The notes under the pieces were generated by a model, which ran no database searches, was not told where the DNA came from, and worked only from the letters and a program-made list of their open reading frames with translations. Positions 19,057 through 43,700 of a stretch of 64,000 nt of DNA are shown piece after piece. Numbering within the stretch: position 1 is the first letter of the stretch; each line of letters opens with the position of its first letter. Source of the DNA: Blasia pusilla (Eukaryota); the NCBI GenBank assembly GCA_050084515.1, contig CM114271.1:18104001-18168000 (forward strand), read 5' to 3'. The position numbers and the translations under genes are program-made.

Positions 19057-20473
19057 TGTCATGCCAAGAGCTTCTCTTTTCGAGCAAAGGCATACCTTAT
19101 AGTTGCGGAAATCGTTGATGCAAGATGAATTCTCTAGTAAGTTTTCGTATTATGTATCAAATCACTATCTACACTCTATGTTCTCTTACAATGAGAATCA
19201 CAAACGATTTTGTCAATTGCAAGATTATCACTTCTTTATAATACCAAACTCCGAAATTCTTGACTATCAAATTTGTATGAACTACTTGGCGTTTGTACAT
19301 AAAGAAAATGTCATAACTTATATCAAATGTAACTTAAGGAGGCATGTTTATATTTATAGGCTGCTAGAGAAGGACAAACAAAATACAATCGTAATTCCTT
19401 ACGAAAGTGATAATAAAAATATCATTGGAGTTGGTGGTTGCATAACTTGGTTTATGAATATCTTTCCAAAGTGATAGACTAGATAATGAGTAAGCCAATG
19501 CATATTTACAAAGATAATCTTTGGGTGATATAGATTAATAAAAAGGAATTCGGATACCACTCACGTTATCTCATCGAGAGCTTTCTTCAAGTAAAAATAT
19601 ACCTTCTCGTTGTAATAGCCATTGAAGCAAAATTGAGTTTTATGATAAGTTTCAAGTGTATATTTGTCACAAACGGTAGTGTTGAGGCGATCATTTTTCA
19701 TAATTTTTAATCAATACCATAAAGCATGATCTTGTTACTATAAAGTATACCATGAAATATACCATAAAGTATATAATCCATCCTCATTAGAAAAGTAACA
19801 AGACCAAATCCATCCATTATCCATAAAATAACAAAGTGAACTTTTCTAAGATAAAAGTCTCTCCAAATAATCATCTCCACACATATTTGATCTTCAAAAC
19901 TTTCAAAGAATAGATCATAACTAATTCACTCTACCAAGAAGGATAATTCACACTAAAAGGACAAGCAAACAAGCCCAATGTCATACACTCAAGAGTGAAA
20001 AGCTAAAAACAAATTCAAGAAATGAATTTCAGGTGATGAATCCTTGAAGGTCCTTGCTCTTTATATACTCACAAGGGATCCTCAAGGATACAAAATAAGT
20101 CTAATCTTATTTTGTGCTATATGACTTCCTCTAAAGGTTTAGCCAATTCCATTTTGAGACAAGTAGATTAACTCTTATCTCTTTCTAAAATATCCTCATA
20201 AATCCACTTCATATCCTCCCAACTATCATAGCCATCAACCAATAATATTCTAGCTTTATTTTCATTAATACACTAATTCACTACTTTACTTTTATGTTTC
20301 CAATATCGCATTTATCAACTTTCTTTTTTATAATTGGACACATACAAATAAGGCATGATTAAAAGGTTTGAACATGGTTTTTTTTCCTAAAGTTTTCACT
20401 CAATACTTATGTAAGCTCTCTCTAACACTAATAAGAGTGAATTATATATTTTAGATTATTTTACTCCACGACA
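19057..20473 (-). repeat. Decayed LTR of Gypsy family X (ORF-bearing LTR)
   Basis: TGTCATGCC...CCACGACA termini; collinear with 33130-34411; decayed ORF-X (KIIFVNMHWLTHYLVYHFGKIFINQVMQPPTP) at ~19165-19570. Confidence 0.75.
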
Positions 20474-21520
20474 ATGGCACAAAAATTGGCAACTCGTAGT
20501 ATCTACGACATAGTATTTGATCCCTAACAAATGACTACTAGTCTTTAAGCATCATAGAATAAGAATGAGAGCTCAAATCCATCAATCTAAAAATCACCTC
20601 GTATTGATGGATGACCAACTCTCACTTGGTTAGTACACGGTGGTAAATGATGAGAAGGGTGCACTTCTCATGTCAAAATAACATGAAAATGGAAAGGGAG
20701 CGAACATAACTTTTGGTATCACAACCTTGTGAGCTTATATTTCAAATTGGAACTCTAATTTGTTACAAGTGGCGATGTTGATCCTCCAAAGGTCCCAAAT
20801 TCATCGAAGAATTGACAAATTTTTGCAATTGTTTTTTCCATACTAACTCAAACCATTGATCTAGTGCTTTTAAGAGCATTCTCATAAGCTCTTAAGCAGT
20901 GGATATAATCCTCAATCTATAAATTAGTGAACACATTGACAACCCTTTTTCGATAATTATCGTAATGTGGAATTCACTCATTATAAAATAGATCAAAATT
21001 CTTGTCCAACACACAAAGAAGACTCTCTATGGCTCTCATGTATACTTTATATTCTCTCTTGTTAAACCAAAGCTACTATGGGATTATTTAGAAGACAAGG
21101 AGCACCATAGCTCCTCCGCCTCATACATAAGAGGATCAACAACCAAAGAATAAACTCTCAAAGCTTACTCTCCTTGAAATATACCATCTTTCCCATATTC
21201 TTCCTTTGATCTTCCATAAAGTCTCTCCCAAAGTCATCCCTTTAGTTCTCTTCAAAGTCTTTCCCTTTATGATTTATGGACTAAAGATTTGTGCACCAAG
21301 GTCACTAATTAATCATAATCCTAAAATAATGGCTAAGGAACCACCATTCACACATAGAATTTCAAAGCTCACATAATTAGGGAGCTTATTTGGAATAGGA
21401 AGTTTCTCAAATAGCTTCCAAATAGATCTACATAAAAGGAGAATCTAGTATAATAGATTACCCTACTTAATAGCAAGTAATCAATGATATATTGAACGCC
21501 GCCTCTTATATATACTAAAG

Positions 21521-22911
21521 TGTCGCACAAAAGCTTATCGTTACACTATAAAAGACTTGATAGGGATGACAAATGGTTATGGTGAGACAATTATTTATTT
21601 GCAGCAAAAAACCCCAATTTTCTTAACTATAAAGTCTCTATAATATCTGTTTGTTTGTACACTAAGAAGATTATACAATTGGTATGAAGACCTAATCGAG
21701 CAGGTATGCTTGCACCCATAAGTTACTAAACGAGAACATATAAAGTGTAATCCCAAGTCCTTCTATAAGTGACAATTAGAGGTACCTCAAAATTTGGTGA
21801 TTGCATGACTTGCTTCATAAATGTGTCTTTGGAATTATGGCCTTGATAGTGAATACACTAATGATTATTTACGAAGAGGATCTTTATATATATAGTACAA
21901 GTTTTTGAAAGGAAAATCAAATACCACGCGCGGTCCATCTTTGTTTATATTTGACAAACATCTTCTATTCCCTTATCTTTTCCTACACAATTTAAAGTCA
22001 TAGATAACCACTACACATATTCTCTTAAACTTATGAATAATAAGTTCCCAAAATTTAATCTACACTCATCAATTTCGAAAGCTCATTCGAAAATGAATCA
22101 TAATTGAGTTATTTTCCCAAGAAGGATAATCAACTTTCATTAAAAGAGTAACCAATATCTCAAGAAATACAAATATAACTCTTTTACGAGAATAAATCTC
22201 TCCAAAATATTCAAATCCAAACTCATCAAACCCTCAAATTTCTCAAGGATGGATGATGGTCAAATTATTCTCTTAAGAGTGATGATCCATTTTCGATAGG
22301 AAAGAAACCAAGTCCAATATTAGTATCCCAAGAATGACAAAAATAACTTGAGAAAATGAAATTTAAGAAAGTGAACGCTTGAATGTCCCTCCTATTTATA
22401 AACTCATGCGGTATCCAAAAGAGTATAAAGTAGGCTAATTTTATCTTGTATCAAATGATTTTCTCTTAAGGCTTAGCCAATCCTTTTTGGACACTAGTAA
22501 ATTAATTTGTATCTCTTTCTAAAATATCTCCATAAAACCATCTTACATCTCTTAACTATCCCAATTATTCTAGTCTCGACTTCTTTATCAATCATGATAA
22601 CTTTAACTTTATTATCATTAATATATCGATCCAATATCTTACTTGAATTTTTCCATGTTATAGTTATGATTTCCTTTTATAGAGTTGGATCTACATAAAT
22701 GAAGTAAATACCAATCCACTACTTTATTTTTCTACTTTTCATGGCTCATTTGTGACATCTTTTCTTGTAATTGGATTTAAATAAATAATCTATTATTACG
22801 AGGTTCAAACATGGAATTTTAAAAAAATTAATCACTTAATATTTATATAAATTATTTCTAACATTCATAAGAAGTAAATATATATATGTCGAATCATTAT
22901 ATTATACGATA
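21521..22911 (-). repeat. Highly decayed family-X LTR
   Basis: TGTCGCAC...TATACGATA termini; shared blocks GGCTTAGCCAAT and CAAGAAGGATAAT. Confidence 0.6.
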
Positions 22912-25330: not shown

Positions 25331-26269
25331 CATTATTATATGTACATGAAATAAAATTTAAATATATATAAAAATATCAAAAATATCGATATTTTATTTT
25401 TTAAATTTTAAATTATTTTGTTTCAAAAAAATATTATATTCATTTTTTTATTTATTATAATAAATAAGAAATATAAATCCATACATAAAATAATGAAAAT
25501 ATAAAAATATGAATATTATAAATCCATATATAAAATAATAAATATTTTATATATTTCTTATAATAAATAATAAAATTGGATTTAATTATTGGTATTTTAA
25601 GTATATGGAAATTTTTTTATTGTAAAATTTGAAAATTGAAAAATAATGATATGAAAATATGAGAATATAAATGAAAATGATATTTTAAACATCTACCCTT
25701 AAAGTCTTATATTTAATTTTCTTCCTTATATTTTTATCCTTTTATCAACAAATAAATGCATTAATCATGCAACTCTATCACAATATGCATTTAGGTCTCA
25801 AGAAACAAACCAAAAAAAATCTTTAAATGAAAATCCAAAGAGGGAATTAAAAATGAAAAAATTAATTTGATTTTCCAAATTTTATCTCGTTTTAGAAGAG
25901 TAAATAAAAGATCCGAACCTTTTAAATAAGAGAGGGTAATCCCAACATCAAGTCCTCCAACTTTTAGCTTAATGCAATGGCGGGAAACTTTAAGTTAAAA
26001 AATATTTTCACTTAAAGTTATCCTCTTTCTCCTTGTCTCTTTATTTTTTTACCTTTCTTTCTAATGAGCATTTCATAAATCATGTCGCATGATAAAAATA
26101 CGCAATTTGGTCTTAGGATCGGATGTCGGGATGAAAATATTGAAATGGTCATCCAAGGAGGGAATTAAAATTAAAAATCATAAATCATAATTATAGTTTC
26201 ATCATAGAAGATTTTACTTTAGAGAAATTTACTCTTTACAACATTTGAAATACTAAGTCAGAAGAATCG

Positions 26270-28131
26270 GTGTAGATAGAGGTGAGTTGAATGCGGAAGA
26301 AGCACTAGAGTTCTTTAAGAAGTATAGAGTTCAGTTGAGACTAACAACCTCCATGAATCCGGAGGCAAACGACAAGAGTGAAAGGGGACATCTGTCAATC
26401 ATTCAAGCATTGGTAAAGACGTGTGTAGATCGTTATGTTGATTGGCCTATATTGCTTCCATTTGCTTTATGGGTAGATAGAACCACTCACAACACCGTTA
26501 CAAGGTTCATGCCTATAGAGTTGATGACATGTCAAAAGCCGATAATGCATGTAGAAGGAGATATTCCCACTTGGATGGGTTTGGCGTGGGAGGACGGACT
26601 CGAAATGGAAGAGCTCATAGCACTTAGAATGCAACAACTATAGCGGCTTGCAAAAGATATTGCACAAGCATTAGTCGAAATGAAGGAAGCAAGGTTGAAA
26701 AAAAAGGGGAGCTTCGACGAAATTCATCGACTCCGGAAGGAGCATATAAGAGAATGAGGTTAGGTCTTGATGCGCGATAACAACTCCGACAACCAATATA
26801 GTATATTTAAAAAAAATTCACGTCGTTGGTTTTATGCATATATTTTAGTATTTATTTTTATAATGCGAACTTATAAACTATGAGAGCTACATGGCAGAAT
26901 TCTCAAGTTGCCCATTGCGGGAAAAAGGGTCAAGATTTTCCGTAGACGTAAAGGATTTCTTTATTTTGACGAGTCAAATCAATTTATCTAAAGATGCAGC
27001 AAAAATAAGATTGAATAAGATAGCAATAAATTCTCATATTTTCGGCACATACCTGAGGATGTGCAGGTTTGGAGGGGATGAGCGTCGTATAGTAAAATCA
27101 TCCACTATGTAAAATTCTCTCTCATTAGGTATTAGTGAGAGTTTTATTAGTATTAAATAAATTAGTTTAGAAAAATAATTTTTTCATATTTAAACCTCTT
27201 TATGGTGCATCTTTTATTCGGGCCCAAATTTAAGAAAAGAGGTTATAAATAAAACATGGGATTATAAAAATAAAATAATGGGATTGATGGATTAATGAAA
27301 GAAAAATAACTAAATTTGGTTGGAATATAGGGTAGTTTGGATAGTTTAAATTATATGCAGTGAATAAACGAGCATATTTTAGAAGAGATAAAAAGTAATC
27401 TACTTGTGTATAAATATGATTGGCTAAGCCTTGAGAGGAAGCCATGTGGCACAAGATAAGATTAGCCCTATTTCATACTCTTGTGAATCCTTGCGAGTAA
27501 ATAAATAAAAGGGACTTTCAAGGATTAATCACCTTCTACTTCATTTCTTGTGTTCTCATGCTACTATTGAGTGGATGGCATTGGGGTCTACTTGTTCTTC
27601 TTATCAGATTGGATTATCCTTCTTAGGAGAGTAACTTGACCATGGTCTATTCTTCGAGAGGTTTATAGAGTGTGATATGTGTGGAGATGAGAGACTTGTC
27701 ATCTTAGGGGAGTTTATTCATACTAGAGATAGTGGATGGTTTTGGCTGGAATCTCCAACTTCGGTGATTCTTCCTATTGTCACGTATATGGGAGAACATG
27801 GGATTGTACGTTGTGTATTCTTATATAGCGATCCATGGATGTTCATAGGCTTGCTCGGGTAGGGTTTAACACTAGTTTTGTTATATTTCCTTTATACAAG
27901 CGTACAGTAATTTACAGGGACTTTACAATTAGGAATTTTTGGGTTCGATGTTATAAAGAAGTGATGGCCTCGATACTACCCTTCATGATTTTTGTCATTA
28001 GAGAATGGAGGATTTATATAATAATTCTGTATTGAAAAAGAGAACATTTTTATAGACTTCACCTTGCATCAACCACGTCTACCGTAGTTAGAAGGTTCGT
28101 CCTTACTCGAAGAAAAGCTCTCAATAGGACA
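26270..28131 (+). mobile_element. 3' remnant of a family-X Gypsy: integrase + PPT + 3' LTR (27083-28131)
   Basis: Integrase NPEANDKSERGH...WPILLPFALWVDRTT (26287-26643); PPT GGAGGGGATGAG at 27071-27082 directly before the LTR start (C/T)GTCGTATAGTAAAATC; LTR ends ...AATAGGACA. Confidence 0.85.
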
Positions 28132-31100
28132 ATAGGCATAATGAGACCCATCATCCATCACTTTGGTTTCCATTCTAGATGTTGTGATGTAGGATTGCCC
28201 AAGAATCACAAAATAAGCAACTCCATTTTGAACAAAGAAGTTTTGCTCAATCAACACATCTTCGATACAAGTTTTAACATATGAACAAGCGCCATAGAAT
28301 TCATCTTCCTGATTAGTGGCCACACGTAGTACTCATCCATATCGTGTATCAATTGGCTAGATTCCTTTGTCGTGTATACTTTCTGACATAATGTTGAATT
28401 ATGAACCATGACAGACGAGAACTAGAATTGACCCTAAGATAGAGCCTAGTCAAACTCCGACCTCCATCCTTGCACCTGCCCAATAGAATCAAGAATAGTG
28501 ACCACCATTGTGCTTTTCTTTAATTTTTTCTATTAAAGCTTCCCCTACTCTCGCCTCTTATGCTTGTAAGTCAAGCCTTTGTCCAAAAACTTGTCCAAGC
28601 TCTTCGCCTTCTCCTTCTGTAATGTGAGTATCCAATGCCCTAACCATCACCACATCTAGATCTGCAGTCATTTGCCTTTTTCTCTTGATCACCTCTATGA
28701 TCAATTCATGAAAGTCACGTTTGGATATCCCCAAGACTTCCCTCAAAGAAAACTCTATTTTTTGCATCCAAAATCTCTTCCTTAAGAATCTCTTTCAAAT
28801 TTATGCTTATCTCTATATCAGATTGCAGCTTCTATGTAGGAATCTTATCCTTGGTCTTATGAGGAGATCTCGATTCTTTCTCCTTTATCCTTGCTTCTTT
28901 GATATGAGAATGCATCATATATTCAGATGTGGAAGGCCCTTCTTCTCTTGATGGCTACACCTTCAGTTGCCCTTTCCTTCTCATGGTTCTCGCTCTTCTT
29001 AAAGCTTCCTCAAGATCAACACCATTATTATCGTGTCTCCTCTTCTCCTCCACAATTGCATCTTGCCAACTTACATGTTTATCTTGTGTTAGATATGCTT
29101 TAAGATATTCAGCTTCCACCGGATCATCCCATCTAGTGAGATGACAGATAATCTCTGCCTATAACTCTCGAGCTCACGGAACCACTCTAGAGTTACTCAA
29201 AGGTAGAATGTCCCTCGAGGCCTCTCCTCTTCCCTTTATATACTTAGAGATAGGTATGATGAAGACAAATTAGCTCTTCCTATCTGTATGTCATATGTCC
29301 TAGTCTCATAGCATGAGAGGATCGTCTTTGGACTTTAATGTCCCAACCTCATCTTCCTCAATCTCATCCTTATATTCCTTTTCACCAACCTATGGCCCCA
29401 CTCTCATCTTTATCCCATGTATCTTATTTTTTCTCTTTTTGGTTGATTTTTCCCACTTATGCGCTTCATGTCATAGATTCTAACTTAACTATGACTAACA
29501 AAAGATGGTTACAAACCTCCCCCCATTTAAGACACAACGTATTCATTGTGAGAACTTTTAAACTCTTACACTATTTATGGTGCGCTGGCCAAGTTGGCTT
29601 AGGGTTCCCATGTGGCCTCAAATAGTGGATATCCTTTCCATTGGACCAAGTATTCAACTCGTTGGTGATGAGCTCCTCAAGTGCATTTCTTCAAGATACG
29701 TTCACTTTAGAAAGACCATGATGGACAAAAATTGTCTCGATATAGATCCAAGCCAACTTTGGTGCAGTCACAATCTTCTTGGTTGGACAAAGATGGATAA
29801 TCTTGTTTAGTCTATCCATCAAGACTACAATATAATCATATATCGTGATCGTATATGGTAGCTCACAAAAAATATCCATAGTGACTTGTTCCCAATATTA
29901 TTGAGGTATTGGGATGGGCTGTAACAACCTTGTTGGTTTTGTGTTACTAGCCTTTAATTGTTAACAAATCCTACAACTCTTTACGTATACGTCAACATCT
30001 TGTCTCATTTTGGGCCAATAGTATGCACGTTGTAATCCTTCAAGGTTTCTTCAACTCCTATATGACCCGCAATGATTATGTCGTGAGCTTTAGACAATAC
30101 TTCAGTGCATAACTATGGATCTTATGGGATCCATACTTTACCTTTATGGAAAACGAATCCTTGAGCCTTGTGTATTTTGTTGGGCTGGATAGTAACTACA
30201 ATTTTTTCATCCTATTTTGTGGCTTTGGATAACTTTTTTCACCGACTAGAGTGAATATCCACTTCATACATATTATTCATATATGGTATACGAGTCAAGG
30301 CGTATGCCAACTACTTATTTTCTTCCACATAGATAATTTTCATCGTGAATTATTTTTGTCATTCTCCCCATCGAATTTGGTGTTTGGAAAGCTTTTTTTG
30401 GGACTCTAAGTAGACCAAGGGCTTGTGATCTGTCTCCACCACAAACTCCTTGTCGTCTAAGTAATATTTCCAATGCTTGGTTGGTAGCACAATAGCGAGT
30501 TCTTTTCGCTCAATTGTATAGTAGTTTTGCTTAATTGGCAATAACTTGCGAGAAAAAGAGGCAATAGGATGTCATCCATCCTCCCATTTTTGTTGTAGTA
30601 CTCCTCCAATGCTAGTACCTGAAGCATAGGGGCTTTGATCAAGACATCCTTTAATGATTGAAAAACAATCTCTTATGATGTGCCCCAATTCCATTTTTAT
30701 TCTTTCCCTAGTAGTCATCAAAGATCGTGCAATTTGAGCAAAACCTTTGACAAATCTTCCAATGAATCCTGTTAATCCTAGAAATCTTTTCAATTGAGTT
30801 TGATCCTCATGTGCATCCTATTTTTTGATCGCTTTTACCTTCTTACTCATCACTTAAATACCTTCTGCGCTTACTCAATGCCCTTGATAATCAACTTCTG
30901 TCTTACCGAACTCACATTTTGAAGCTTTAGCATACAACTCATTTTCTCTTATGATTTGAAGGATTTATTGTAGATGATTTATATGCTCATCAATGGTTTT
31001 ACTATAGACTAATATATCATCTAAGAAAACAATTATAGACTTATCTAAATATGGACGAAAGATATCAATCATTAGGCCCATAAAGGTTGGAGGTGCATGA

Positions 31101-31965
31101 GTAAGACCAAATGACATGACTAAGTATTCAAAGTGTTCATACCTAGTACGAAACGCAGTCTTGGGCACATCTTCATCTGCAATTTGAATTTGGTTATAGC
31201 CGCTTCTAAGGTCTAGTTTGGTGAAGTATTTTACTTATCGTAGTTGGTCAAACAAATCATTCATTCTTGATAATGGATATTTGTTTTTTAATGTTTGTTG
31301 ATTCAGTGCTCGATAGTCAATACAAAGTTGCATGCTTCCATCCTTATTTTTCACAAAAAAAGGAGAGGGGCTACATATGGCGAGACGCTTGGTTGGATGA
31401 AGAAGCCTTTTTGCAACATCTCCTCCACTTTGGCTTTGCATTCTTCTAATTCCCTTGGAGCTACGCGGTTAGGAGTCTTACATGATGGTGTGCTTCCTAG
31501 AAGGACCTCAATCTTGTGGTCTACCCTCTGTTTGGGTGGTAACCCTCATGGTAAATCATTTGGGAATACATATTTATATTCCTCCAATATTTCTCTCAAT
31601 TCGTCTAGTACCTCTTAATATTTTTTCAAACCACCAATATCTCTTATTAAACCTAGGAAACATACATCTTGAGGTTTGATGACGGTTTTTCCTATTACAT
31701 ATAGGGGTAGGATTTTAAGACGTGATCTAACTTTATATTCGTAAAGCTTCCACTTTCGGGTCTTCACAAATTTTTTTCTCCAATCTACTTGTGAATTTTA
31801 CTGTTCTATTCAAGGCATTTACGAGATAACATCATAACGTGTTAATCTAACGATTTTAATCTCCAACTCTACCTAACACTTTCCTATCCTCGACTCTGCC
31901 CTTCGAGGAAGCTTCTCGAACTTTTATGTTTGCCCATTTGGAAATTCTATCTCTTCTTTTTTATG

Positions 31966-32438
31966 TGTCGTGCGAATCCACATCGTCATACAACATACAT
32001 CGATGACATATCATATTCACAAACATACATAACATAAACGAGAGCATCCACAAACACAAGTGTACGACAACTGAAATCCGTGAAAGACCTACTGTCATAA
32101 AGCACGTATAGAATCACATACAATCGAGCCAAATCCACTCCACGATGGGAGAATCCAGGTCGAAGCTTGCGGGAATCACCATAGTGAAGAGCTCTACTCA
32201 CTACCAAGGCTAACTCCCAACGCAACAGGCTCAACTCAAAGAACTAACTATTTTTTGAGTGCACTCCACACTATATCCTCCAACCTGAGAGCGGGCCCTA
32301 TTGGAAAAGTCACCCTCAACGAGTAACCCCCAACCCTATGTATGAAACCGCATCTCTACCTAGACACTACGCCCCTACATAAGGTATGGCCTCTACTAGC
32401 ACACTATACTCTACGACATAATCCGTATGGTCATGACA
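31966..32438 (-). repeat. Solo LTR of the DNMT-carrying Gypsy family
   Basis: Reverse complement of 56385-56851 (TGTCATGACCATACGG...GGATTCGCACGACA); flanks TATG/TATC (4-bp TSD, 1 mismatch). Confidence 0.9.
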
Positions 32439-33129
32439 TATCCCTCTCTAAAGCTAAGCCCAATTTCATAGTTATGGCTCTTGAAATGAAGTTTTCTCTT
32501 GCCCTAGGATCAATCAACACTCTAACTTGGGTTCCTTATAATTCCCCATTTATTATAATGAGACGCGTTTATCCTAACTTCAAACTATTTACCTCCACAT
32601 GTTTGTGTCGACCCTCGTCTTTCCTCCTTTTGTTAGAACGAGTATATCCACGAGGCGCGATTAGTCGTGGTTGGCGTTTCCCTGAGATCCACCAAGCTTC
32701 TTTTTCATCTTTCTCAATATGTCTTCCTTCAAGATAATTAAGACGACAACGATATGGCTTATTTGCGAGCCTACGAAGACGATAATTCATGGCTATATCA
32801 CCATATCTACCATATTCAAAATATTAGAATGTATCTCTTCGGACTTTGAATTCTCTCCCTCCTCTAGGAATCCCAATCCCGTCGATTCGAGGAGCAATCC
32901 CTTGTATGTTGGAATTTGATCTCTCTCCATTGACATCCTTCCATTATACCTCGGCGGCGCATAACCATATCGTGCTTGAAGATTATCTAAGTGCATGGAT
33001 ATGGATCTGTAGTGGTTTTTCATGGAAGGAACCACCTCTCCTCCTCCTTCGTACATATTTTCCATACATTGGGCATATGCGATTGCTTCATTGATATCTT
33101 TTGGGTTTTCTGGAATCACCTCTTGACGT

Positions 33130-34411
33130 TGTCGTGTCGAGAGTCTTTCTTCAAGCAAGGGCGGGCCTTCTAGCTGCAGTAGATACGGTCGATGCAAGAT
33201 GAACTCTCTAAGAAGTTCTACTTTTTCAATACAAAATTATGATGTACACTCTCCATTCTCTCACGACAGGTATCACAAATGGAAGTGCCGAGGCGATCAC
33301 TTCTTCGTAACATCGGACCCAGAAATTCCTAACTATAAAATCCCTATAAACTATCTTACGCTTGTACACAAGGAAGATAGCACAACTAGTGTTAAACCCT
33401 ACTTGAGCAGGCCTATTGACATCCATGGGTCGCTCTATAAGGACATACAAAGTACAATCCCATGTCCTTCCATATGTGACGATAGGAAGAATCACCGGAG
33501 TTGGAGATTGCATGACCTAGTTCATGAACGCTTCCCCAAAGCGATAAACTAAATATTGATTGAACCAGTGTCTATCTACAAAGAGTATCTTGACATGGTA
33601 TGGATTGAGGAAAGGAAAGTCGGGTACAACTCGTGCTCCACCCCTATCCATGCTTGACAAACATTCTTTTCTCTCCTCAAGAATGGATTTTGGCGGAATT
33701 ATTCTCCCAAGAGGGATAATCCACTCTCATTGGGGAAGTAACAAGCCAAAACATTCACTATTTTAGTATGACTAAACTCCTCTAAGGTGACAAACCTCTC
33801 ATCTCCACACACACACACACACACCACACTCTAGAAACCTCTCGAAGAATAGACCATGATCAAGTTACTATCCCAAGAGGGGTAATCCACTCTCATTGGA
33901 AGAGCAATCAATCCCAAAACCATACACTCAAGAGAGACACGAGAGACTCAAGATGTGACCTTCAAGGGTTCATCATGAACCCTTGAAGGTCCCTCCTCTA
34001 TATACTCACAAGGAATCCACAAGAGTACAAAATAGAGCTTATCTTATCTTGTGCCACATGGCTTGCTCTCAAGGCTTAGCCAATCACATTTTGACACAAG
34101 TATATTTCCTCTTATCTCTTCCAAAATATCCTCTTTTACCCACTTAATATTTTCCAAATTACCCCAACTAACCTAGCCACCAACCAAGACTACTTTTGCT
34201 TTTCATTAAAACAACTACTTTACTTTTATAAAATCATCTTTTATTTATTACCTGCTTTTTCTAAAGTTGGGCCCGCATAAAAGAGGCACCATAAAGAGAT
34301 TTAAACATGGGGATTTCCTTTTCCTAAGCTAATTTACTTAATACTAATAAAACTCTATCTAACACTTAACGAGGAAGGAATTTATACACTGGCTGATTTT
34401 ACTATACGACA
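33130..34411 (-). repeat. Solo LTR of family X, best-preserved copy
   Basis: TGTCGTGTC...TATACGACA termini; flanks ACGT/ACGC; inserted in the chromovirus gag. Confidence 0.85.
33226..33651 (-). pseudogene. ORF-X: unknown 141-codon ORF inside the LTR (one CAG->TAG stop)
   Basis: MDRGGARVVPDFPFLNPYHVKILFVDRHWFNQYLVYRFGEAFMN*VMQSPTPVILPIVTYGRTWDCTLYVLIERPMDVNRPAQVGFNTSCAIFLVYKRKIVYRDFIVRNFWVRCYEEVIASALPFVIPVVREWRVYIIILY; conserved in other copies. Confidence 0.7.
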
Positions 34412-34967
34412 ACGCACCTTCTTATTCTAACCTTTATTGAATAAATCGAGAACTTCTGGCCGACTCATGCGTAGATTTGTATCTGCAAGTCATGAAACTC
34501 TTCGATGTTGTTCTCCACAATATCTTTCTATTTCAATTACCATAATTTCATTATAGCAGTGAGGATTGGATCCACAACTTGGAAATTTTACAGCAACCCT
34601 TGCTTCATTTCGCTCCATGTGATTTTTTGAGTTGTTTCAATCAAGGATCTCTCCCATCCTTGATACCATGTCAGTACTCTATGAGTTAATTAAGATCTTA
34701 AGAATATCCATGCAATATAATCATCAATGTTGAAAAGGATAAATGGATTTCCATCCGAGTGATCCAACCCTCTAATACCACCATGGCTTGACTTCCTTTG
34801 TACGGTTCAATATTGCATATCTTTAACATTTTCAATATCAATAAGGCTTGAGTAGTCATCTCCATCACAATTTGTGGTGAGTGAGCCTCTAATGCTCGTG
34901 CATTTAAGATCTCGTCATTCTCCCCAAAAGTCATTACACTCATGGTTTCCATCTCCATCCCACCTAT

Positions 34968-35152
<185 letters not shown>

Positions 35153-35312
35153 CTTACACTTATTTCTAACCAAAGCAACTTCTTACACTAATTCTTGGAC
35201 TTGGTTTTGACTTTGATCAAATGCAACTCTCAACTCTCTCAATTCACGAATCATATCCCTTAAAGTTTCTTCCATGATCGCTCCAACTTTCCCCTGACCC
35301 ATTACTACCATT

Positions 35313-35746
35313 CTAATATAAGATCAACATATACACATGCCAATTTTGCACAATAAGGACTACAAAAGGCAATGTTGACGTAATGACTTCATCATAATAC
35401 TCTTGGCCAAACTTCCTCACCATAAACTCTCTATATGCTATCTTAGGTTGACAACCCACATGGACTATACATTGATTGTTAAAAAATACTTGTGGAGGCC
35501 CATTCAAATCCATTCTCCATATCTCATCTAAAATAGTATATAAATAGTCCAATCCCACACACGATCATACGTAACTATAGGGAGGATCGTCGGGAAGCGA
35601 GACTCCATCACTTGCGTAATGAAAACTTCATCAAAATGATATACGAGGTATCTTGTGAACCAGTGTCTATCTACGTATAAGATTTTGATAGTGAATGCAT
35701 TAAGAAACAAAAAATTAGGAGCCACTCTTGCTCCCACTCCATCCAT
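35313..35746 (-). pseudogene. ORF-X homolog in the chromovirus leader (one frameshift near 35530)
   Basis: MDGVGARVAPNFLFLNAFTIKILYVDRHWFTRYLVYHFDEVFITQVMESRFPTILPIVTYDRVWDWTIYILF / ...KIAYREFMVRKFGQEYYDEVITSTLPFVVLIVQNWHVYMLILY aligns end-to-end with 33226-33651. Confidence 0.7.
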
Positions 35747-37200
35747 TACTTGCAAAACAACCCTTTCTCCATTCTCTACTTGCATCTCAATAACCATTTT
35801 CAACCTCTAGCAATCTATCTACTTTCCACAGTATACCATTACTTGGTCATCCCTTCAAGAGGGATAATCCACTCTCGTTGGAAGAGCAACATTGCTCTAA
35901 TATTATTGTAAGTCTCGAGCTCACGGAACCACTGTAGAGTTGCTTAAAGGGTGGAATGCCCCTCGATGCCTCTCCTCTTCCTTTGTATACTTATAGATAG
36001 GTACAATGAAGATAAATTAGCTCTTTACCTATCCTTATGCCACATGTCTTATTCTCATAGCATGAGAGGATCTCCTTGAGACTCTAATGTCCCAACCTCA
36101 TCCTTATCTTCCTTTTCACCAACCTATGACCCCACACTTATCTTTATCTCATGTATCTTTTTTTTTTTTCTTTTTTTGGTTGATTCTTTCCCATTTATGC
36201 ACGCTTTATGTCATAGATGTTAACTTAACTATGACTAACAAAGGATGGTTACACTGCCGTCGTAGCATCACTTCTTGAGGAAACAGTAATGATTCATTCT
36301 TAATTACAAACACAATAGGTCATTTTATCTCCACTACAAAGGTTTCAAAATTTAATACCGTAGTGGCAACTCCTACTTGACCTCTTAAGAAGCTCTTCAT
36401 TCCTCCTCTACCAAAGTTCGTACTCAATGATATACCTCTTTACATTGAATGAATCTTTTCATCTTTGAAATTTACAATTCCATTCCTAAAAGCTTTTGAT
36501 AACTCCTCGCATTTTCGACATTGATGCTCAATACTATCACCACATATGCCTCTCATCACAAAGTTCCTACTCGTTGAAGGAGCATGACCACTAGGATTCC
36601 GATCTAGTTTAAGCTCGACCATCTCTACTCTCAACTTTCTCAAACCTTTCACCAACTCATCTATGGCAGATTCTTCAAATTTTATCGAAACGGGCTTAGG
36701 CAAAGGAGTTGGAATTGATACCACTGACTTAAATATTACGATTTTATCTCTATCTCTACTTTGTTTTGTAAGGATAGCAATAGCTTATTCCACCTACTTC
36801 CAATTTGTGCTTACATCTCATTCTTTGGTCTTTTCCACCAACATTAGGAAGATCTTTGCCTCCAAATTCTTATCAGCCACCTCAAGGAATAGCTCAATTT
36901 TCCTCAAGTCAAGAATTGCCCTTTCGGAGGAAGATAACTGTAAAACCCACTTCTCAAACTCACGCAATAATTCATTAGGAGTCATTCCTCTTCTTAGACG
37001 TTACTGTATTCATTCTAGAAAACTCCACTTAGTCACCCGATCCACATCATCATTGAATAATTCTCCTTTCAACAATTGTTCATACTCTTCCCACGAATTT
37101 GGATTTTCAACTCTCACTTTTTTGACCTGACTAAGAATCTTTCGTAATACAACTAACTCAAAATTTCACACCATGTCACCTTCGAGCACACGGTTTACAT

Positions 37201-38289: not shown

Positions 38290-38568
38290 ACATACATCTC
38301 ACACAAGTACTCTCGAATATATTTGGTGATATTCCTCCCATCAAAGCTTCCCAACTTTTTTACAATCGCTTGGAGAGCTTTCGTTGATCTTTGCTCTCCC
38401 AAATCAACTCCTCTTTGTTGGCTTAACAATGTTGTCAAAATTTAGAGAAGATACTCAACTCCCTCGGTTTCCATTGATGGAGTACTACCAAAAGAACTCA
38501 TCTTGATAAGACTCGAACTTGCAAAACAAAATCTATTGCCTCAAAGATCTCTTAGTGGAAGCATTATT

Positions 38569-39837
38569 TGTCGCGTCAAAAGCTTTTCTTCGAGTAAGGT
38601 CAGACCTTCTAACTACGGTAGATGTGGTTGATGCAAGGTACACTCTATATGAAATTATCCTTTTTCAATACAAAATTATTATATAAACCTTATATTCTCT
38701 CACGACAAGAATCACAAATGGTAGTGCCAAGGCAATCACTTCTTCATAATATCGAACCCCAAAATTCAGAATTATGAATTATGAAATCCATATAAATTAT
38801 TTTCCGCTTATACACAAGAAAAATAGCATAAATTATGTTAAAACCTACTCGAGAAAGCCTATTAACATCCATGGATTGTAATATAAGAAGATACATCATA
38901 CAATCCATGTCCTTCCATACGTGACAATGTGAAGGATCAACGGAGCTGGAGATTTTGGGACCTAGTTCATGAATGCCTCCCCAAAGTTGGTAAACTAATA
39001 GAGGATAAACCAATGTCCATCTACGAAGAGATTCTTCAAGTGATACGAGTTAACAAAAGGAAAATCATGTACAATTCATGCTCCATCCATATCCATACTT
39101 GACAAATATTATATTCTCCTCAAGAATGGATTTTGGCGGAGTTGCTCTGCCAAGAGGGGTAACATTGGGAAAATAACCATCCCAAACCACATACTATTTC
39201 TAATATAACAAAACTCTCATAAGATGATAAGTCTCTCATCTCCGTACAAACCATATTTTTAAAAACTTCTCAAAGAATAATTCATGGTCAAATTACTCTC
39301 CTAAGAGGGGTAACCCATTCTCATTAGAAGAGCAAGCAAACCCCAATGCCATCCACTGAAGAGTGATACGAGAAACTCAAGAAATGAAATATAACGTGAT
39401 AAACCATTGAAGGGCCCTCCTCTTTATATACTCTAAAGGAATTTACAAGAGGGTTAATCTTATCTTATGCCTCATGACTTCCTCTCGAGGCTTAGCCAAT
39501 CATATTTTGGCATAAATAGATTACATGTTATCTTTTCTAAAATATCCTCATAAACTCACTTCATATCTTCCAAACTACCCCAACTATCCTAACCACCAAC
39601 CAAAAATATTTATGCTTTCTTTCATTAATGCACAAACCCCAATACTTTACTTTTATAATCCCATATCTCATTTATTACTTCTTTTTCTAAATTTGGGCCC
39701 GTATAAAAGAGGCACCATAAAAAGGTTTAAACATTAAAATTTTATTTTTCTAAGTTTATTTACTCGATGCTAATAAAACTCTCACTAACACTTAATGAGA
39801 GAGAGGTTTGCATAGTGGATGATTTTATTATGCGACA
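38569..39837 (-). repeat. 5' LTR of the family-X element, containing decayed ORF-X (~38665-39095)
   Basis: TGTCGCGTC...TATGCGACA termini; collinear with 33130-34411; followed on the minus strand by a decayed PBS-like TAATGCTTCCACTAAGAG and gag. Confidence 0.85.
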
Positions 39838-39989
39838 ACGTGGTTGCTCTTTCGACGAGAATGAGTTACTCTTCTTGCAAACATTACTTCTTCATGATCA
39901 ATTCTTGAAAAGTTTGAGAATTGGAAGAACGTGGAGTCGAGTAAGTTTCTTATATTTGTCGTATTAGAAAAGTTGTATTTGTCCTTCTT

Positions 39990-40716
39990 CAGATAATGGA
40001 AGCTATGGGATTTGGATTATCTCTCTTGAAAGATTAACTCAATCCTGATCCAATCTCGAGGAGCTTTACAGATTAATGAATGTAGACCAATTCTTAGAAA
40101 CTTATAGTTCATGAGTTTGAGATTATATATTAGCTCTTGCCTATGACTTTAAGTTATGTAGCAAGAGAGAGGAGGATTGAGGATGTTTCTCCAATAAGGA
40201 TAGAGATAAAGCGCGAGTGGTACTTGATTCTCTTTTCCTAAATCCATACAACAAAAATATCCTCTTCGTAGATAAGCAATATTTTTTTCGCTATGTATAT
40301 TATCACTTTGGAGAGATATTAATGAACCAATTCATACAATTTCCAACTCTGATGATACTTATGATTGTCACTTATGGAAGGACTTAGGATTTCACATCGT
40401 ATGTCCTCATTTTCAAACTTATGAATAGAAGCACATCTTCTCGAGTATATTTTAATTACTGAATATAAAAATTTCCGAGTGTATAATTTTAACGAGGTTT
40501 ATAAAGACTTCATAGTTAAGAAATTTTAAATTATGTAAAATAGAAAAAAAATTCCTTGACAAAACTATTTGTAATTCTTTTTGTTAGAGAATGGGGACTG
40601 CATGTTATGATTCTATACTAAATAGGGAAGAAAAATTGTAGATAAATTAATCTGTATGAACAACTGCTTCAACTAGAAGGTCCGTCCTTACTCGAAGAAA
40701 GACTTTCGATATAACA
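39990..40716 (+). repeat. Partial, decayed family-X LTR with ORF-X remnant
   Basis: ARVVLDSLFLNPY...ILFVDKQYFFRYVYYHFGE...IVTYGRT at ~40200-40620; ends CCTTACTCGAAGAAAG...GATATAACA. Confidence 0.7.
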
Positions 40717-43700
40717 ATATATTTCTCTAAAATACAATGATATGCAATGTTGGAGGAATTAAATAACAATTAAAAAATAATAAACAAAAGTATTTTCAAA
40801 ATTTTACATATTGAATTGTGCATTATCATCTCTGCCATAGCTATGTGGTTTGGATATGGATAAAATAAAATATTATTTAATATGAAGTATGTCATGGATT
40901 GTACGAGAGTCTACGCTTCCTTGCCAACTTAATCCAAGCTATAAATCAATGATTTCCACCAAATATATAGAAGTATTAATAAGATCAACCATCGATTCTC
41001 TATGTGCTTAACATATTTTCTTTTCAAATTTCTATCCCATTTTTCGCAATCAGCCTTCGTAAAATTTTGGACACTATTAGTGTTGTATATTTGAACATAC
41101 AATGATGAATAATTCTCTTCATATAAAGTTGTAACTACACATTATTTCAATTTGTGCAAGTATTTAACTTTTTGTATCTCCCTAACATAATGCATATTTT
41201 GAAGCCAATGTAACTACACTCATGGTACTTTAAGATCACTAATCATTGTCACTTGCTCCATGAGATATACTCATACACATCAAATTAGTCAACTCATATA
41301 ATTAAAGATTTTTGAACAAATCTTTCACAATAGTCCTACATCTTAATTTAAATAGTATTTTATCCTCTCGAATATTGGATACGTGTTATCTTTCCTTGTA
41401 AAATTGAGGTCATCTTCATTCAATAACTAATATGCATATGTTTCCAATATTTATGAGCATCACCTATAAGTATTCATTCCTTCCAAAATCACCAAACAAG
41501 TGCAAGTACATATGACGGAGATTTTATCCTTGCAACTCAAGAGAGTATTCAAGTAATAAAACTTCATGATGTTATTGCAAAAAAATATCAATTTGTTATT
41601 CGACAAGTGTTTTATGATTGCTTGTTATATTGTTCAATTGAAGAGTATGTGATCGTCTGTACATGCCCATAGAAATGAACTTTGCAAAGTAATTCGTTTA
41701 AGCTAGCATGTTGATAGTAGGCATAATAAATACCAACGAGCTTAGACTTGCAATTGCCATTGCATAATTTTGAACGGAAAATTGAAGATATTTTATTTAC
41801 CGTATTGTCGATCATACTATCTATATTTTCTAGTGGCTATCTATAACTATTTTGTTGTTCTTATTCAATATTAGTGGTGGATGACATAAAATTTTTTTCA
41901 TCCAAACATATAATTTTTTCTTTGCATTTGTTAAATATCTTATTGATTGTTATTTGACCAAAGAAATATCGAAGACTACTAATATCTAATATGTTTGGTA
42001 TTTTGAACTTGTTGATGTTTGTATCTTTCAATTCTTTTAGTTTATGGTGGCCAATCTCTTACTTAGACTAGATTTCCACATCTAGTATGATGTCATCTAT
42101 ATTTTGATGAATCATGTTTTGCTTAGGTAGTTCCAATACAAGTTTATTCATATTCTTATGTTTATTACCATATGCGTTCATAATAATTTATGCACCATTC
42201 GGTTGAGATCTATTCATAACTTTGGGACTTTCTATTCAATATCATTTTGTAATGAATTCTAATTGCTATAGTTTATTGAAAGTGACTTATCTTGTATTCA
42301 CCTTGTAGGATAATTTTAGACAATGAATTGCAATAAGTTCATTGTATTGTTGCTCTCCGATGTTGCATCATTTGGAGATTTCATCATCATTAACTAAACA
42401 ATATACCCACACATATCGATGTTTTCCAAAGCAAGAAAGCCCACTTTCAAGTACCATGGATCCAATTTTCAACGATGCTATCGTTATAATTTCACTATTC
42501 AAGAGAGCAATGAAGAACATTGAGGCGATTCGTGATACGTTTGATGAGTCATGAAGTAAAGTTGACACCTTTAACACTCTATTATAATATGTTGCCAATG
42601 ATGTGAAGTATCACCACAGTAGTGTAGGACAACTTAAGTAAAGGAATCAGATCGATACGTTCAACAATTCGTTTTTTTGGCAAGTATTTATTAAATGATG
42701 AAGATTTGCTTGAATGCGATAATTACTTGTAACTTATTTTAGATTTTTTGGTATAGATATCATGTATGTGGGGGAGTCTTAACTTCTAGTTGCACATTTT
42801 TAATTCCTCCTCTTTAGCAATTGATATCCAATTTGACTTACCTTACTATAAAGTTCAATACTAGATACTAAAATATTTTGTTTACATTTGGTTGATGCAA
42901 TATATTTTCTATGATATAATTTGTCATAATTATAGTTGATAAAATTTATTTATTTCATGAAAGATTATGGTATACATGCAATTTTCAATTATCAACCATT
43001 GAAGTTTCTTATTAAGGCATTTATAGCCCTTTGAGGAAATTTTCCCAATTGCCCATCTAATTGACTGGATTCGTGTATCTAAGTCAATCTCTTGTGAATG
43101 ATATTTTGTATTGAGTTCTAATTATATATTATAAAAGTTTAATCAAACATCCTTCTTATATTGAGATTTACTATTCAATATCATTTTGGCCCATGGAATT
43201 TCATATTCGAAGACTTCTCATTTTTAACAACTATTATTCATGATTATTTTACATATTAGCAACCATAACATTCATACAAAATAATTTGTTTATATAGTAG
43301 CAACCATAAAATTTGTATAAAGTTAGACTCCACATTAATATATACATTATTATGTGTCTTCAATACCACCATGTTACTTTGTATTATTCATAGTTGTTTG
43401 TCAAATAAGAAATGTTGTAAGCATCTTACGTTCTTTGCCTTAGGCTTCTATATTGCATATAAGTGTTGATTCATAATATAGATTAAATATATAACTATTG
43501 TTCACATTGTATTACGTATTAGCAATACTATACTCTTAGTATACAAATGGACTTTCTACTACTGAATTTTTTGGTTGGTAGCCTAATCTTATGTATTTAA
43601 TATAGAAAATAATTAATAATAGGATTTGGTGGTTCATTTTACAAGCACTCCACACAATATGTACTTATGGCGTAATGTATTTTGTGGCATATCACAAAAA

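Follow-up and report, generated by a model that had tools for sequence, protein, structure and literature searches.

Tandem paralogous reading frames inside a long terminal repeat and ahead of gag in a neighbouring chromovirus

In retroviruses, reading frames may overlap the LTRs: MMTV sag lies in U3 and lentiviral nef reaches into U3, and in both cases translation uses the 3' end of RNAs that are spliced or start at an internal promoter. In plant pararetroviruses (badnaviruses and tungroviruses), ORF I and ORF II precede the polyprotein. Additional or extra ORFs (aORFs; eORF-5'F class) have been described in plant Ty3/gypsy retrotransposons (Vicient and Casacuberta, 2020, PMC7264820; Neumann et al., 2019, PMC6317226; Steinbauerova et al., 2011, as cited in PMC7264820), the survey of Neumann et al. 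having scored only ORFs of at least 250 codons. Drosophila elements of the MDG1 group (412, mdg1, Stalker and blood) carry two small ORFs upstream of gag, sORF1 (~110 aa), predicted to contain a helix-turn-helix, and sORF2 (~70 aa), predicted to form a myristoylated transmembrane FAST-like helix (bioRxiv 10.1101/2025.03.14.642691).

Here we describe a gene pair, Xa and Xb, found in a 64,000-nt stretch of Blasia pusilla DNA (contig CM114271.1; the whole stretch is referred to as the window). It occurs inside the LTRs of one retrotransposon family (family X) and, intact, within a neighbouring complete element (Y); we class it with the "additional ORFs" of LTR retrotransposons. Like the aORFs, Xa and Xb are sense ORFs outside gag-pol that are kept across family copies and have no known domain, and the intact pair in Y (copy E) shares with the eORF-5'F class, as described in PMC6317226, its position between the 5' LTR and gag. 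Unlike the aORFs described in PMC7264820 and PMC6317226, the genes are two tandem paralogues, and, with 72 and 66 codons, they fall below the criterion of at least 250 codons used in the latter survey; moreover, aORFs are placed in the internal region (PMC7264820), whereas the family-X pair lies inside the LTR. As described in the bioRxiv account, the MDG1 sORFs resemble Xa/Xb in being two small sense ORFs ahead of gag in Ty3/gypsy elements, with low nonsynonymous rates, carried on a full-length LTR-to-LTR transcript and read as accessory proteins. In contrast to Xa and Xb, sORF1 and sORF2 are not paralogues of each other, and Xa/Xb have a plant host and a predicted beta-alpha-beta-beta fold, the likeness to the fly proteins being one of description. 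The FAST-like features of sORF2 (a central transmembrane helix, an N-myristoylation motif and a polybasic stretch) were not seen on inspection of Xa and Xb of copy E, whose sequences start with MD... and contain no hydrophobic run of at least 18 residues, the AlphaFold2 prediction being beta-alpha-beta-beta.

Reading frames Xa and Xb

The frame under study is located on the minus strand of an LTR of family X (copy D), where it runs from 33651 to 33229 (141 codons, with an ATG at 33651, a TTG at 33660 and a stop at 33226-33228). An earlier reading of the window, made from the sequence alone, had described this frame, named ORF-X, as open for 141 codons except for one TAG (33517-33519), which proved correct. 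Using tblastn and a six-frame HMM scan, ORF-X-like sequence was detected at seven sites in the 64 kb and nowhere else in it (19154-19560, 21559-21957, 27746-28032, 33229-33651, 35316-35746, 38668-39105 and 40190-40618); the six sites listed by the sequence-only reading were recovered, and a seventh, 35316-35746 (copy E), had been overlooked. Both halves are intact only in copy E; the other six copies of the pair are broken, and every window copy except E is dead. The best preserved frames are as follows.

33436..33651, minus strand: Xa of copy D, 72 codons, with a TAG at 33517-33519 and without the usual Xa-terminal stop
33226..33426, minus strand: Xb of copy D, 66 codons plus stop, open
27835-28032, plus strand: Xb of copy C, open
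35528..35746, minus strand: Xa of copy E, intact, 72 codons plus TAG, internal to Y
35313..35513, minus strand: Xb of copy E, intact, 66 codons plus TAG

ORF-X had been taken for a single protein of ~141 aa, but it is two tandem paralogous ORFs of ~70 codons, Xa (~72) and Xb (~66), each with its own start and stop. The two profiles align with each other (hhalign probability 98.2%, E 4.9e-14), Xa runs directly into a stop in 4 of the 7 copies of the window and in 19 of the 26 database proteins of Xa type, and Xb-type relatives have a Met start of their own. In copy E, both ORFs are intact and in different frames, Xb starting 14 nt past the Xa stop and a gag ATG lying 1 nt past the Xb stop; the frame of copy D is continuous because the stop between Xa and Xb has been lost.

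Differences per site, pooled over the 21 pairs of the seven window copies, amount to 867/2623 (0.331), 811/2612 (0.310) and 1285/2624 (0.490) at codon positions 1, 2 and 3, respectively (chi-square = 212, from pairs that are not independent of one another). In a four-copy LTR alignment, the corresponding values for the ORF segment are 0.271, 0.212 and 0.384, and a single raised codon position is absent from all other LTR-X segments of this alignment. The median pN/pS is 0.51 in the ORF frame, with values below 1 in 41 of 42 comparisons, and 1.04 and 1.05 in two control frames. Values of dN/dS, a measure that the earlier reading had proposed, are mostly 0.17-0.5 where dS is correctable and approach 1 (~0.8-1.0) only in the closest pairs, c27-c38 and c21-c40. 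These substitution patterns support the claim that ORF-X, which runs in sense with pol, is genuinely coding, and indicate that the amino-acid sequence of Xa and Xb is under purifying selection.

An ORF on the plus strand (33127-33552) was rejected as a shadow frame: it uses the same triplets as ORF-X, and its own codon position 1 would be the most variable. Separately, LTR-X segment 251-500 shows uneven values (0.23, 0.265 and 0.158), for which we have no explanation at hand and which count against our best explanation of the locus.

Among 1.84 billion representatives, 33 proteins, all of 44-197 aa, matched at E<=1e-3. Relatives with 25-49% identity share the same motifs, and one database cluster contains 16 near-identical members with identical start and stop. 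A further profile search gave 13 short proteins, and a whole-frame word-index search gave no match. The search for longer relatives returned only two read-through forms (176 and 211 aa); polyprotein fusions were absent from its results, and none of the relatives recovered had a Pfam domain. The database relatives are unnamed ORFs on short contigs; scans of metagenome and viral contigs yielded pattern matches, with no locus confirmed.

The sequence-only reading had recognised no domain in ORF-X, which is borne out by the Pfam, PDB and viral-fold searches. No Pfam family is common to more than one of 26 + 12 members, the four matches obtained (E 0.011-0.068) each falling on a single member. The profile and fold analyses which that reading had suggested (AlphaFold, Foldseek) gave a compact predicted beta-alpha-beta-beta fold (AlphaFold2, mean pLDDT 86.4) with no Foldseek match at E<=1e-3 against pdb and BFVD, the latter offering no viral relative by sequence or fold. 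The best Z in the VIA structure comparison was 3.2, the only row in the PDB sequence comparison was Crov588 (E 3.8e-4), with no passing stretch, and the best ESM Atlas scores (0.78 and 0.76) were below lead level. A two-domain AlphaFold2 model of copy D was left out of the fold search; the pLDDT of its second half was below 50 because only one alignment row covered that half. According to the models, Xa and Xb would each be a small beta-alpha-beta-beta domain without known relative.

The 1.28-kb LTR and element Y

The 1.28-kb unit carrying the pair in family X is an LTR: it has TG...CA ends with a short terminal inverted repeat, occurs as a solo copy with a target-site duplication and an empty site, and follows pol and a polypurine tract. 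The proposal that the ORF lies inside a true LTR was thus confirmed on copies D and C. The following copies were distinguished in the window.

19057..20474, minus strand: LTR-X copy A, ORF trace 19154-19560 with stops and a frameshift; abuts the 5' LTR of an unrelated copia element
21559..22528, minus strand: LTR-X copy B, partial; ORF trace 21559-21957 broken
27084..28132, plus strand: LTR-X copy C, 3' LTR past an integrase-like ORF (26257-26643) and a purine-rich tract; most of Xa deleted
33130..34411, minus strand: LTR-X copy D, solo LTR of 1282 bp, TGTCGT...ACGACA, inserted in gag of Y
33126..33129: left flank of copy D, ACGT, target-site duplication
34412..34415: right flank of copy D, ACGC, target-site duplication
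38568..39840, minus strand: LTR-X copy F, ORF trace 38668-39105 with stops and frameshifts
39893..40717, plus strand: LTR-X copy G, 5' end truncated; ORF trace 40190-40618 broken

The 3' end point of the LTR is common to copies A, C, D, F and G. In copy D, the ORF pair spans approximately LTR positions 761-1186, and the target-site duplication is 4 bp long with one mismatch (ACGT/ACGC). RNA was taken from three raw runs of the same species label. In reads of paralogues, the empty-site joint of 33125/8 to 34412/5 is represented by few reads (3, 0 and 5 in the three runs), and 68, 64 and 71 reads join 33128 to 34474; copy D is missing from the expressed paralogues. At copy C, the integrase-like ORF (26257-26643) is followed by GGAGGGGATGAG and then by the LTR start. 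The integrase likeness was judged by eye, this ORF having no Pfam match. Reads extend from the pol 3' flank into the start of LTR-X at copy C (48, 100 and 77 in the three runs), a read joint 27082/34411 bridging 27082 to the LTR start.

At no place in the window do two LTR-X copies bracket one family-X element; Y lies between copies D and F, which are 76% alike. Joining D and F into one element, with an apparent purine-rich tract beside D, was rejected, since D is a solo insertion and the two copies are only 76% alike. No PBS was recognised after copies A, F and G. Neither ARAGORN (over the window) nor Rfam (over 18-42 kb) revealed tRNA genes or RNA families, and therefore no tRNA gene of the window was on hand to match a family-X PBS against. 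The arrangement asserted by the earlier reading, with the ORF just before PBS and gag, was seen in no family-X copy in the window: (i) the gag beside copy A belongs to the copia element, which has its own 417-bp LTR and PBS, (ii) the gag around copy D is that of Y, into which the solo LTR inserted, and (iii) the candidate gag after copy F is gag-like by eye, with no Pfam match even at E 5.

The element that houses copy E, and into which copy D inserted, has the following outline.

29162..36253, minus strand: element Y, a complete chromovirus with paired LTRs, target-site duplication, PBS, Xa, Xb, gag, RT, RNase H, integrase zinc finger, chromodomain and polypurine tract
35909-36253, minus strand: 5' LTR of Y
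29162-29513, minus strand: 3' LTR of Y

The LTRs of Y are 83.4% identical over 361 aligned columns and are flanked by a 5-bp target-site duplication (GGCAG at 36254-36258 and 29157-29161), and the polypurine tract AATGGGGGGAGG precedes the 3' LTR. The PBS, complementary to tRNA-iMet, is decayed in the window (~35890-35908); RNA reads give it as TGGTATCAGAGC (as reverse complement), between the LTR end and the leader. The pol domains follow one another on the minus strand in the order RVT_1 (3.7e-29), RT_RNaseH (9.8e-23), Integrase_H2C2 (2.2e-8) and Chromo (2.8e-10). With its RT-RNase H-integrase order, C-terminal chromodomain, paired LTRs, target-site duplication, PBS and polypurine tract, Y is a Ty3/gypsy chromovirus. 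A weak gag match is located downstream of Xa/Xb; an HJURP_C match (E 6e-4, below cut-off) on the ORF 32793-33197 was discarded, this stretch being a continuation of the Y gag. Copy E sits between the PBS and gag of Y, outside any LTR, and the gene pair is consequently not, as had been supposed, tied to LTRs.

Proposed growth of the LTR over the leader

Three features of copy D, all upstream of the ORFs, relate LTR-X to the leader of Y.

33998..34006, minus strand: TATA-like motif, approximately LTR-X position 408-418
33911..33922, minus strand: PBS-like relic inside LTR-X, aligned with the tRNA-iMet PBS of Y
33874..33907, minus strand: leader block of 34 nt, 94% identical to the post-PBS leader of Y (35856-35889)

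The TATA-like motif is kept in all four aligned LTR-X copies. Of 16 bases, the relic and the iMet PBS share only 8, a further 5 differing by transitions; together with the leader block, which is repeated at LTR-X positions 680-705, the relic is colinear with Y. Between the internal regions of the X and Y families, no sense-to-sense tblastx similarity was found at E 1e-3.

We consider it fairly probable that Xa and Xb are paralogous accessory ORFs of Ty3/gypsy elements, which are leader genes in Y and have been enclosed by a grown LTR in family X. The ancestral order, kept in Y, would be LTR, tRNA-iMet PBS, a leader of ~145 nt, Xa, Xb and gag, with Xa and Xb as the first ORFs on the genomic RNA, in sense and ahead of gag; in family X, the LTR boundary would have come to lie downstream of Xb. 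Reverse transcription sets the 3' end of an LTR at the base preceding the PBS, and therefore a priming site between Xb and gag would make the old PBS, the leader and the ORFs part of U5. From the colinearity with Y we infer that LTR-X grew over the leader gene pair as the PBS moved downstream, a shift that would copy the old PBS, leader and ORFs into both LTRs within one replication cycle. The genomic RNA of family X would still contain the pair once, at its 5' end, and in the DNA form every LTR and solo LTR would carry it downstream of the TATA-like motif. Several results weigh against this explanation: the window has no two-LTR element of family X and no recognisable PBS past its LTR-X copies, the gag-like stretch past copy F has no Pfam match, the relic agrees with the iMet PBS at half of the 16 bases, the internal regions of the two families gave no tblastx similarity at E 1e-3, and the RNA pattern over LTR-X described below fits poorly with the TATA-like motif.

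Translation of the pair would probably proceed from a polycistronic leader by reinitiation or leaky scanning, as judged by the short spacers of copy E (14 nt and 1 nt). Badnaviruses and tungroviruses likewise have closely spaced small ORFs before the capsid-polymerase ORF on one pregenomic RNA, and by analogy the close spacing of small leading ORFs suggests polycistronic translation. The products would presumably serve the element's own cycle. The family-X pair has in common with sag and nef that the coding sequence is duplicated in both LTRs of the DNA form; sag and nef, however, are located in U3, whereas Xa and Xb, putatively in U5, would be read from the 5' leader. The U5 placement is suggested by the TATA-like motif and the PBS-like relic lying upstream of the ORFs, with which the parallel to MMTV sag drawn by the sequence-only reading seems not to agree.

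The leader position of the pair and its tight spacing in copy E would also be expected if Xa and Xb were upstream ORFs tuning gag translation in cis, their peptides being irrelevant. This appears improbable in the light of the purifying selection on the amino-acid sequence, the motifs retained in distant relatives and the compact predicted fold, and in family X the next possible gag start lies ~170 nt away from Xb, beyond the LTR end. The pair might instead be a passenger, a fragment of a host gene or of some other mobile element that was taken up once and is now decaying without a role, in keeping with the six broken copies in the window and with Pfam, Foldseek and VIA searches from which no function could be assigned. 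We give this reading little probability, as the selection signal was measured between retrotransposon lineages, hence after the pair had joined the elements, two families that differ in their LTRs and in their pol ends have both retained the pair, no long or Pfam-bearing relative was found, and one database cluster holds 16 intact, near-identical members. Quite unlikely, too, is a single sag-like accessory protein of ~141 aa, encoded as such in the LTR, as in MMTV, and produced either from the LTR or from the RNA 3' end: although copy D reads through as a single frame and in-frame fusions occur in a few relatives (P0003, 169 aa; P0017, P0027 and P0054, with an Xa tail ahead of Xb), Xa is followed by a stop in most window copies and database relatives, the sole intact copy has Xb in another frame, the TATA-like motif and PBS relic precede the ORFs, and pol-derived RNA entering the 3' LTR copy C ends near LTR position 245, well short of them.

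A broader interpretation, possible but doubtful, would see in Xa and Xb an unrecognised, widespread accessory pair of a plant gypsy lineage and the counterpart of the fly MDG1 sORFs, forming a two-subunit protein for the element cycle or for host evasion; a single PBS shift would have put the pair in the LTR, and solo LTRs would be promoter-plus-gene units supplying proteins in trans or co-opted by the host. Genes of ~70 codons are excluded by length cut-offs such as that of the plant retrotransposon survey cited above (PMC6317226), and the fly work (bioRxiv 10.1101/2025.03.14.642691), as far as described there, indicates that equally small ORFs ahead of gag can decide the spread of an element. 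The window adds a case from plants, in which the signal of selection is clear and the predicted fold is an orphan. That one of two neighbouring families has the gene pair inside its LTR and the other outside suggests that LTRs may grow in one step, taking a gene along, via a moved priming site. Were this true, the solo LTRs of such families would be small genes besides promoters, which bears on plant genome annotation and on the domestication of retrotransposon proteins.

Transcription of the LTR and the ORF region

RNA-seq, also proposed by the earlier reading, showed the ORF region of copy D to be covered in sense by reads that are mostly 85-95% alike and so derive from paralogues, with stranded sense depths of 50-97 and 80-143 versus antisense depths of 2-11. 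Many RNA molecules begin at 34162 (approximately LTR position 250), RNA coverage of copy C reaches only ~27327, and read depth in LTR-X dips at 33814-34095; these three observations do not simply fit a start ~30 nt past the TATA-like motif. Seven molecules, all from a single run, end at 33943.

Coding capacity of the repeat and the Xa-Xb pair

What was designated ORF-X is in fact two leader ORFs belonging to gypsy-type elements, here named Xa and Xb. The surrounding DNA is plant-like: it contains a nest of copia and gypsy elements as well as an intact pentatricopeptide-repeat (PPR) ORF (6216-8138, minus strand; 640 codons), the sole evident host gene near the retrotransposon nest. ORF-X was found by tblastn, and by an HMM scan with all six frames translated, at seven sites within the 64 kb and at no others; the sites listed in the sequence-only reading were right, while that at 35316-35746 (copy E) was absent from its list. 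Copy D lies within a ~1.28-kb repeat (family X), other copies or parts of which were detected by blastn:

33651-33229, minus strand, ORF-X frame of copy D, from ATG at 33651 (TTG upstream at 33660), stop at 33226-33228
33130-34411, minus strand, ~1.28-kb repeat containing this frame (ends TGTCGT...ACGACA)
19057-20474, copy or part of the repeat (copy A)
21559-22528, copy or part of the repeat
27084-28132, copy or part of the repeat, inverted (copy C)
35410-35889, copy or part of the repeat
38568-39840, copy or part of the repeat (copy F)
~39893-40717, copy or part of the repeat, inverted

The copy D frame is interrupted by a single in-frame TAG (33517-33519), a position occupied by a sense codon in four of the six other copies and by the same TAG in one.

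Alignment of the seven copies in the ORF sense, with differences pooled over 21 pairs, gave 0.331 (867/2623), 0.310 (811/2612) and 0.490 (1285/2624) differences per site at codon positions 1, 2 and 3, respectively. The chi-square of 212 overstates the significance, because copy pairs are non-independent; the direction is the same in nearly all of them. Uncorrected pN/pS in the ORF frame had a median of 0.51 (below 1 in 41 and below 0.6 in 32 of the 42 pair-by-half comparisons), against medians of 1.04 and 1.05 in the two shifted control frames. Where dS was correctable, dN/dS was mostly 0.17-0.5; values near 0.8-1.0 were obtained only for the closest pairs (the copies near 27 and 38 kb, and those near 21 and 40 kb), as expected if these diverged recently as dead copies. 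When four full LTR copies were aligned, one raised codon position appeared in the ORF segment alone (0.271, 0.212, 0.384); LTR segment 251-500 is uneven in a different manner (0.23, 0.265, 0.158), which is unexplained. The codon-position differences and the pN/pS values relative to the control frames thus bear out ORF-X as real coding sequence. Two overlapping plus-strand frames were rejected as genes: (i) 33127-33552 (141 codons), which uses the same triplets and whose own codon position 1 would vary most, and (ii) 19103-19474 (123 codons), opposite ORF-X on the same triplets, a shadow frame by its substitution pattern, like the first.

An exhaustive phmmer search of 1.84 billion representatives yielded 33 proteins at E<=1e-3 (best 4.7e-13), all of 44-197 aa. 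They are of two kinds: (i) those matching residues 4-75 of the translated frame (Xa), whose ORF ends at exactly the same column in 19 of 26 proteins, and (ii) those matching residues 79-144 (Xb), which have their own initial methionine (typically MDLN...). A stop directly follows Xa in four of the seven window copies; copy D lacks it, and its frame therefore appears as a single 141-codon ORF. The stops after Xa, in the window and among the relatives, and the separate methionine of Xb speak for two ORFs, not for the one ~141-aa protein first proposed. In-frame fusions occur in a few database relatives (P0003, P0017, P0027 and P0054). The Xa and Xb alignments are related to each other (hhalign probability 98.2%, E 4.9e-14, 67 columns). 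One database cluster holds 16 near-identical members with shared start and stop. All relatives are unnamed ORFs from short contigs, at best labelled 'hypothetical protein'; scans for the genomic loci behind them confirmed none, and no fusion to gag or pol turned up in phmmer across all lengths or in a profile search restricted to longer proteins.

Element Y and its expressed paralogues

The intact ORF pair of copy E is internal to element Y, a complete chromovirus, and lies outside any LTR:

29162-36253, minus strand, complete element Y, host of copy E
35909-36253 and 29162-29513, LTRs of Y, ~350 bp, 83.4% identical

The same 5 bp, GGCAG, are present at both outer sides of Y, a purine-rich tract precedes its 3' LTR, and its domain order is RVT_1, RT_RNaseH, Integrase_H2C2, Chromo. 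The layout is LTR, primer-binding site (PBS), ~145 nt, Xa, Xb, gag. Both ORFs of copy E are open (Xa, 35746-35528, 72 codons; Xb, 35513-35313, 66 codons), in different frames and 14 nt apart, and a gag-like frame (MVVMGQGK...) begins 1 nt past the Xb stop; farther along, this frame matches Retrotrans_gag weakly (E 0.0041, short of the Pfam cut-off). Given their close spacing in copy E, Xa and Xb may be translated by reinitiation or leaky scanning.

RNA reads from three stranded runs labelled with the same species were mapped on 26200-34650 at a likeness threshold of 85%. Reads at least 99% alike numbered 13, 5 and 12; the majority were 85-95% alike, which places their origin in paralogues elsewhere and not at this locus. 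The strands of the reads agree with those of the genes: over 26200-27045 (integrase-like, plus coded) the read pairs have their first mate on the minus strand, and over 29000-34650 (minus coded) the mate orientation is opposite. In run X9, mismatches in the mapped region mostly had A/T in the window and G/C in the reads (A>G at 178 and T>C at 198 places), the reverse being far rarer (G>A 62, C>T 67). The window copies have therefore decayed by C-to-T changes relative to expressed paralogues. This decay accounts for the degraded PBS of Y: the window has ATAATATTAGAGCAATG directly after the 5' LTR, and reads of more intact paralogues have, at the same joint, the reverse complement of CAATGGTATCAGAGCAAGG, the PBS for initiator tRNA-Met (iMet). 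Plant LTR retrotransposons commonly have such a PBS.

Y carries an inserted 478-bp unit (31962-32439), which is also found at 47016-47380 and 56382-56817. It is absent from expressed paralogues, in which 31961 is joined to 32440 (241, 186 and 237 reads in the three runs). In further reads the end of the unit is linked to its own start across 2 intervening letters, comparable to tandem or circular LTR junctions.

LTR-X and the proposed origin of its ORF pair

The 1.28-kb unit is a true LTR (LTR-X). In copy D it occurs as a solo LTR between ACGT and ACGC, inserted in the gag of Y just past the weak Retrotrans_gag match. Reads joining 33128 to 34474 (68, 64 and 71 in the three runs), or, in a few cases, directly 33125/8 to 34412/5 (3, 0 and 5), span copy D and therefore derive from expressed relatives of Y without it. 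Five LTR-X copies have a common ...ACA end point. Upstream of copy C are an integrase-like ORF (identified by eye; no Pfam match) and a purine-rich tract, and reads bridge from 27082 into the LTR start (48, 100 and 77). The shared ends, the copy D flanks and these bridging reads confirm that ORF-X lies inside a real LTR. Its supposed position just before a PBS and gag is not supported by any family-X copy: the gag next to copy A is that of a copia element, which has an LTR and a PBS of its own:

10751-19045, minus strand, Ty1/copia element with 417-bp LTRs (89% identical), PBS TGGTATTAGAGC, and gag, protease-barrel and integrase domains

The 5' LTR of this element begins 12-16 bp from the end of copy A and was probably the source of the 'PBS and gag' in the sequence-only reading. 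The copia element is interrupted by a gypsy fragment (RT_RNaseH 11816-12730, gag 13954-14553). The window yielded no family-X element in which both LTRs are present and a PBS is recognisable after the 5' LTR; the stretch past copy F is gag-like by eye, without a Pfam match.

A shift of the LTR boundary offers the best explanation for finding the ORF pair within the LTR. LTR-X and the 5' end of Y are colinear: all four copies compared have a TATA-like motif at LTR position ~408-418, and ~80 nt past it ATGGCATTGGGG (copies F and C) aligns with the PBS of Y, ATGGTATCAGAG in expressed Y-type reads (8 of 16 bases identical, 5 transitions). There follow a 34-nt block 94% identical to the leader of Y and, downstream, Xa and Xb (~65% DNA identity to those of Y); LTR-X ends ~96 nt past Xb. 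In reverse transcription, the last base of the LTR is the one next to the PBS, the point at which synthesis of minus-strand strong-stop DNA begins. Since the PBS sets this boundary, a new priming site arising downstream of Xb would make U5 out of the former PBS, the leader and both ORFs, and one cycle would suffice to copy them into both LTRs. Family-X genomic RNA would still carry a single ORF pair in its 5' leader, as in Y.

Two observations support the leader reading: sense reads over the ORF part of copy D reach depths of 50-97 and 80-143, versus 2-11 antisense, and reads from pol into the 3' LTR copy C end near LTR position 245, upstream of the ORFs. Against a tidy leader picture, many molecules start at 34162 (LTR position ~250), upstream of the TATA-like motif, the depth dips at 33814-34095, and just seven molecules, all from one run, have their end at 33943. 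The 34162 start (sense strand GGGTAAT) accounts for about one-fifth of the molecules over copy D in two of the three runs, and reads entering copy C from pol halt at its equivalent (27328-27891); candidate explanations are a poly(A) site, a splice donor and a homology break.

The post-PBS block (TTGCTCTTCC...GGATTA.CCCTCTTG; 33874-33907, 33699-33759 and 35856-35889) is the best conserved non-coding piece common to X and Y, and LTR-X contains it twice. Complementarity of its first 7 bases to the 3' half of the iMet PBS would allow the block and the PBS to pair as a hairpin, possibly with a role in priming or packaging.

Predicted proteins and known systems

No Pfam family was common to the 26 Xa-type and 12 Xb-type sequences, which gave four below-threshold matches (E 0.011-0.068), each on a single sequence, and the copy D translation had no Pfam match, in agreement with the original remark that no domain was recognisable. 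In the AlphaFold2 model of Xa (31-row alignment; mean pLDDT 86.4), a proline-rich N-terminus precedes a compact strand-helix-strand-strand fold. Foldseek against PDB and BFVD found nothing at E<=1e-3, the best Z in a representative-wide VIA search was 3.2, and a PDB sequence search gave one row, without a passing stretch; the predicted fold is small and without an informative relative. We commit only to Xa and Xb being putative paralogous small proteins under amino-acid-level selection, probably made from the genomic-RNA leader and serving the element. Of the initial interpretation, coding capacity, location in a real LTR and the unrecognised domain stand, and the single gene gives way to a pair of leader ORFs.

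In the largest survey, only ORFs of at least 250 codons were counted (PMC6317226). The nearest analogue in layout is the pair sORF1 and sORF2 of the Drosophila MDG1 group, which lie upstream of gag and are translated; sORF2 is read there as a FAST-like membrane protein (bioRxiv 10.1101/2025.03.14.642691). In contrast to sORF2, Xa and Xb have neither a transmembrane helix nor a myristoylation motif. Openly searchable full-text literature on small leader ORFs in plant retrotransposons and on LTR-encoded ORFs did not describe the Xa-Xb pair or an LTR engulfing a leader gene.

Elsewhere in the window, a GC-rich stretch at 51428-53709 (plus strand) holds an ORF with a C-5 cytosine DNA methylase match (PF00145, E 2.4e-9) and, just downstream on the same strand, an RVT_1 ORF (E 4.5e-24); this arrangement may represent a retroelement carrying a methyltransferase-like domain.
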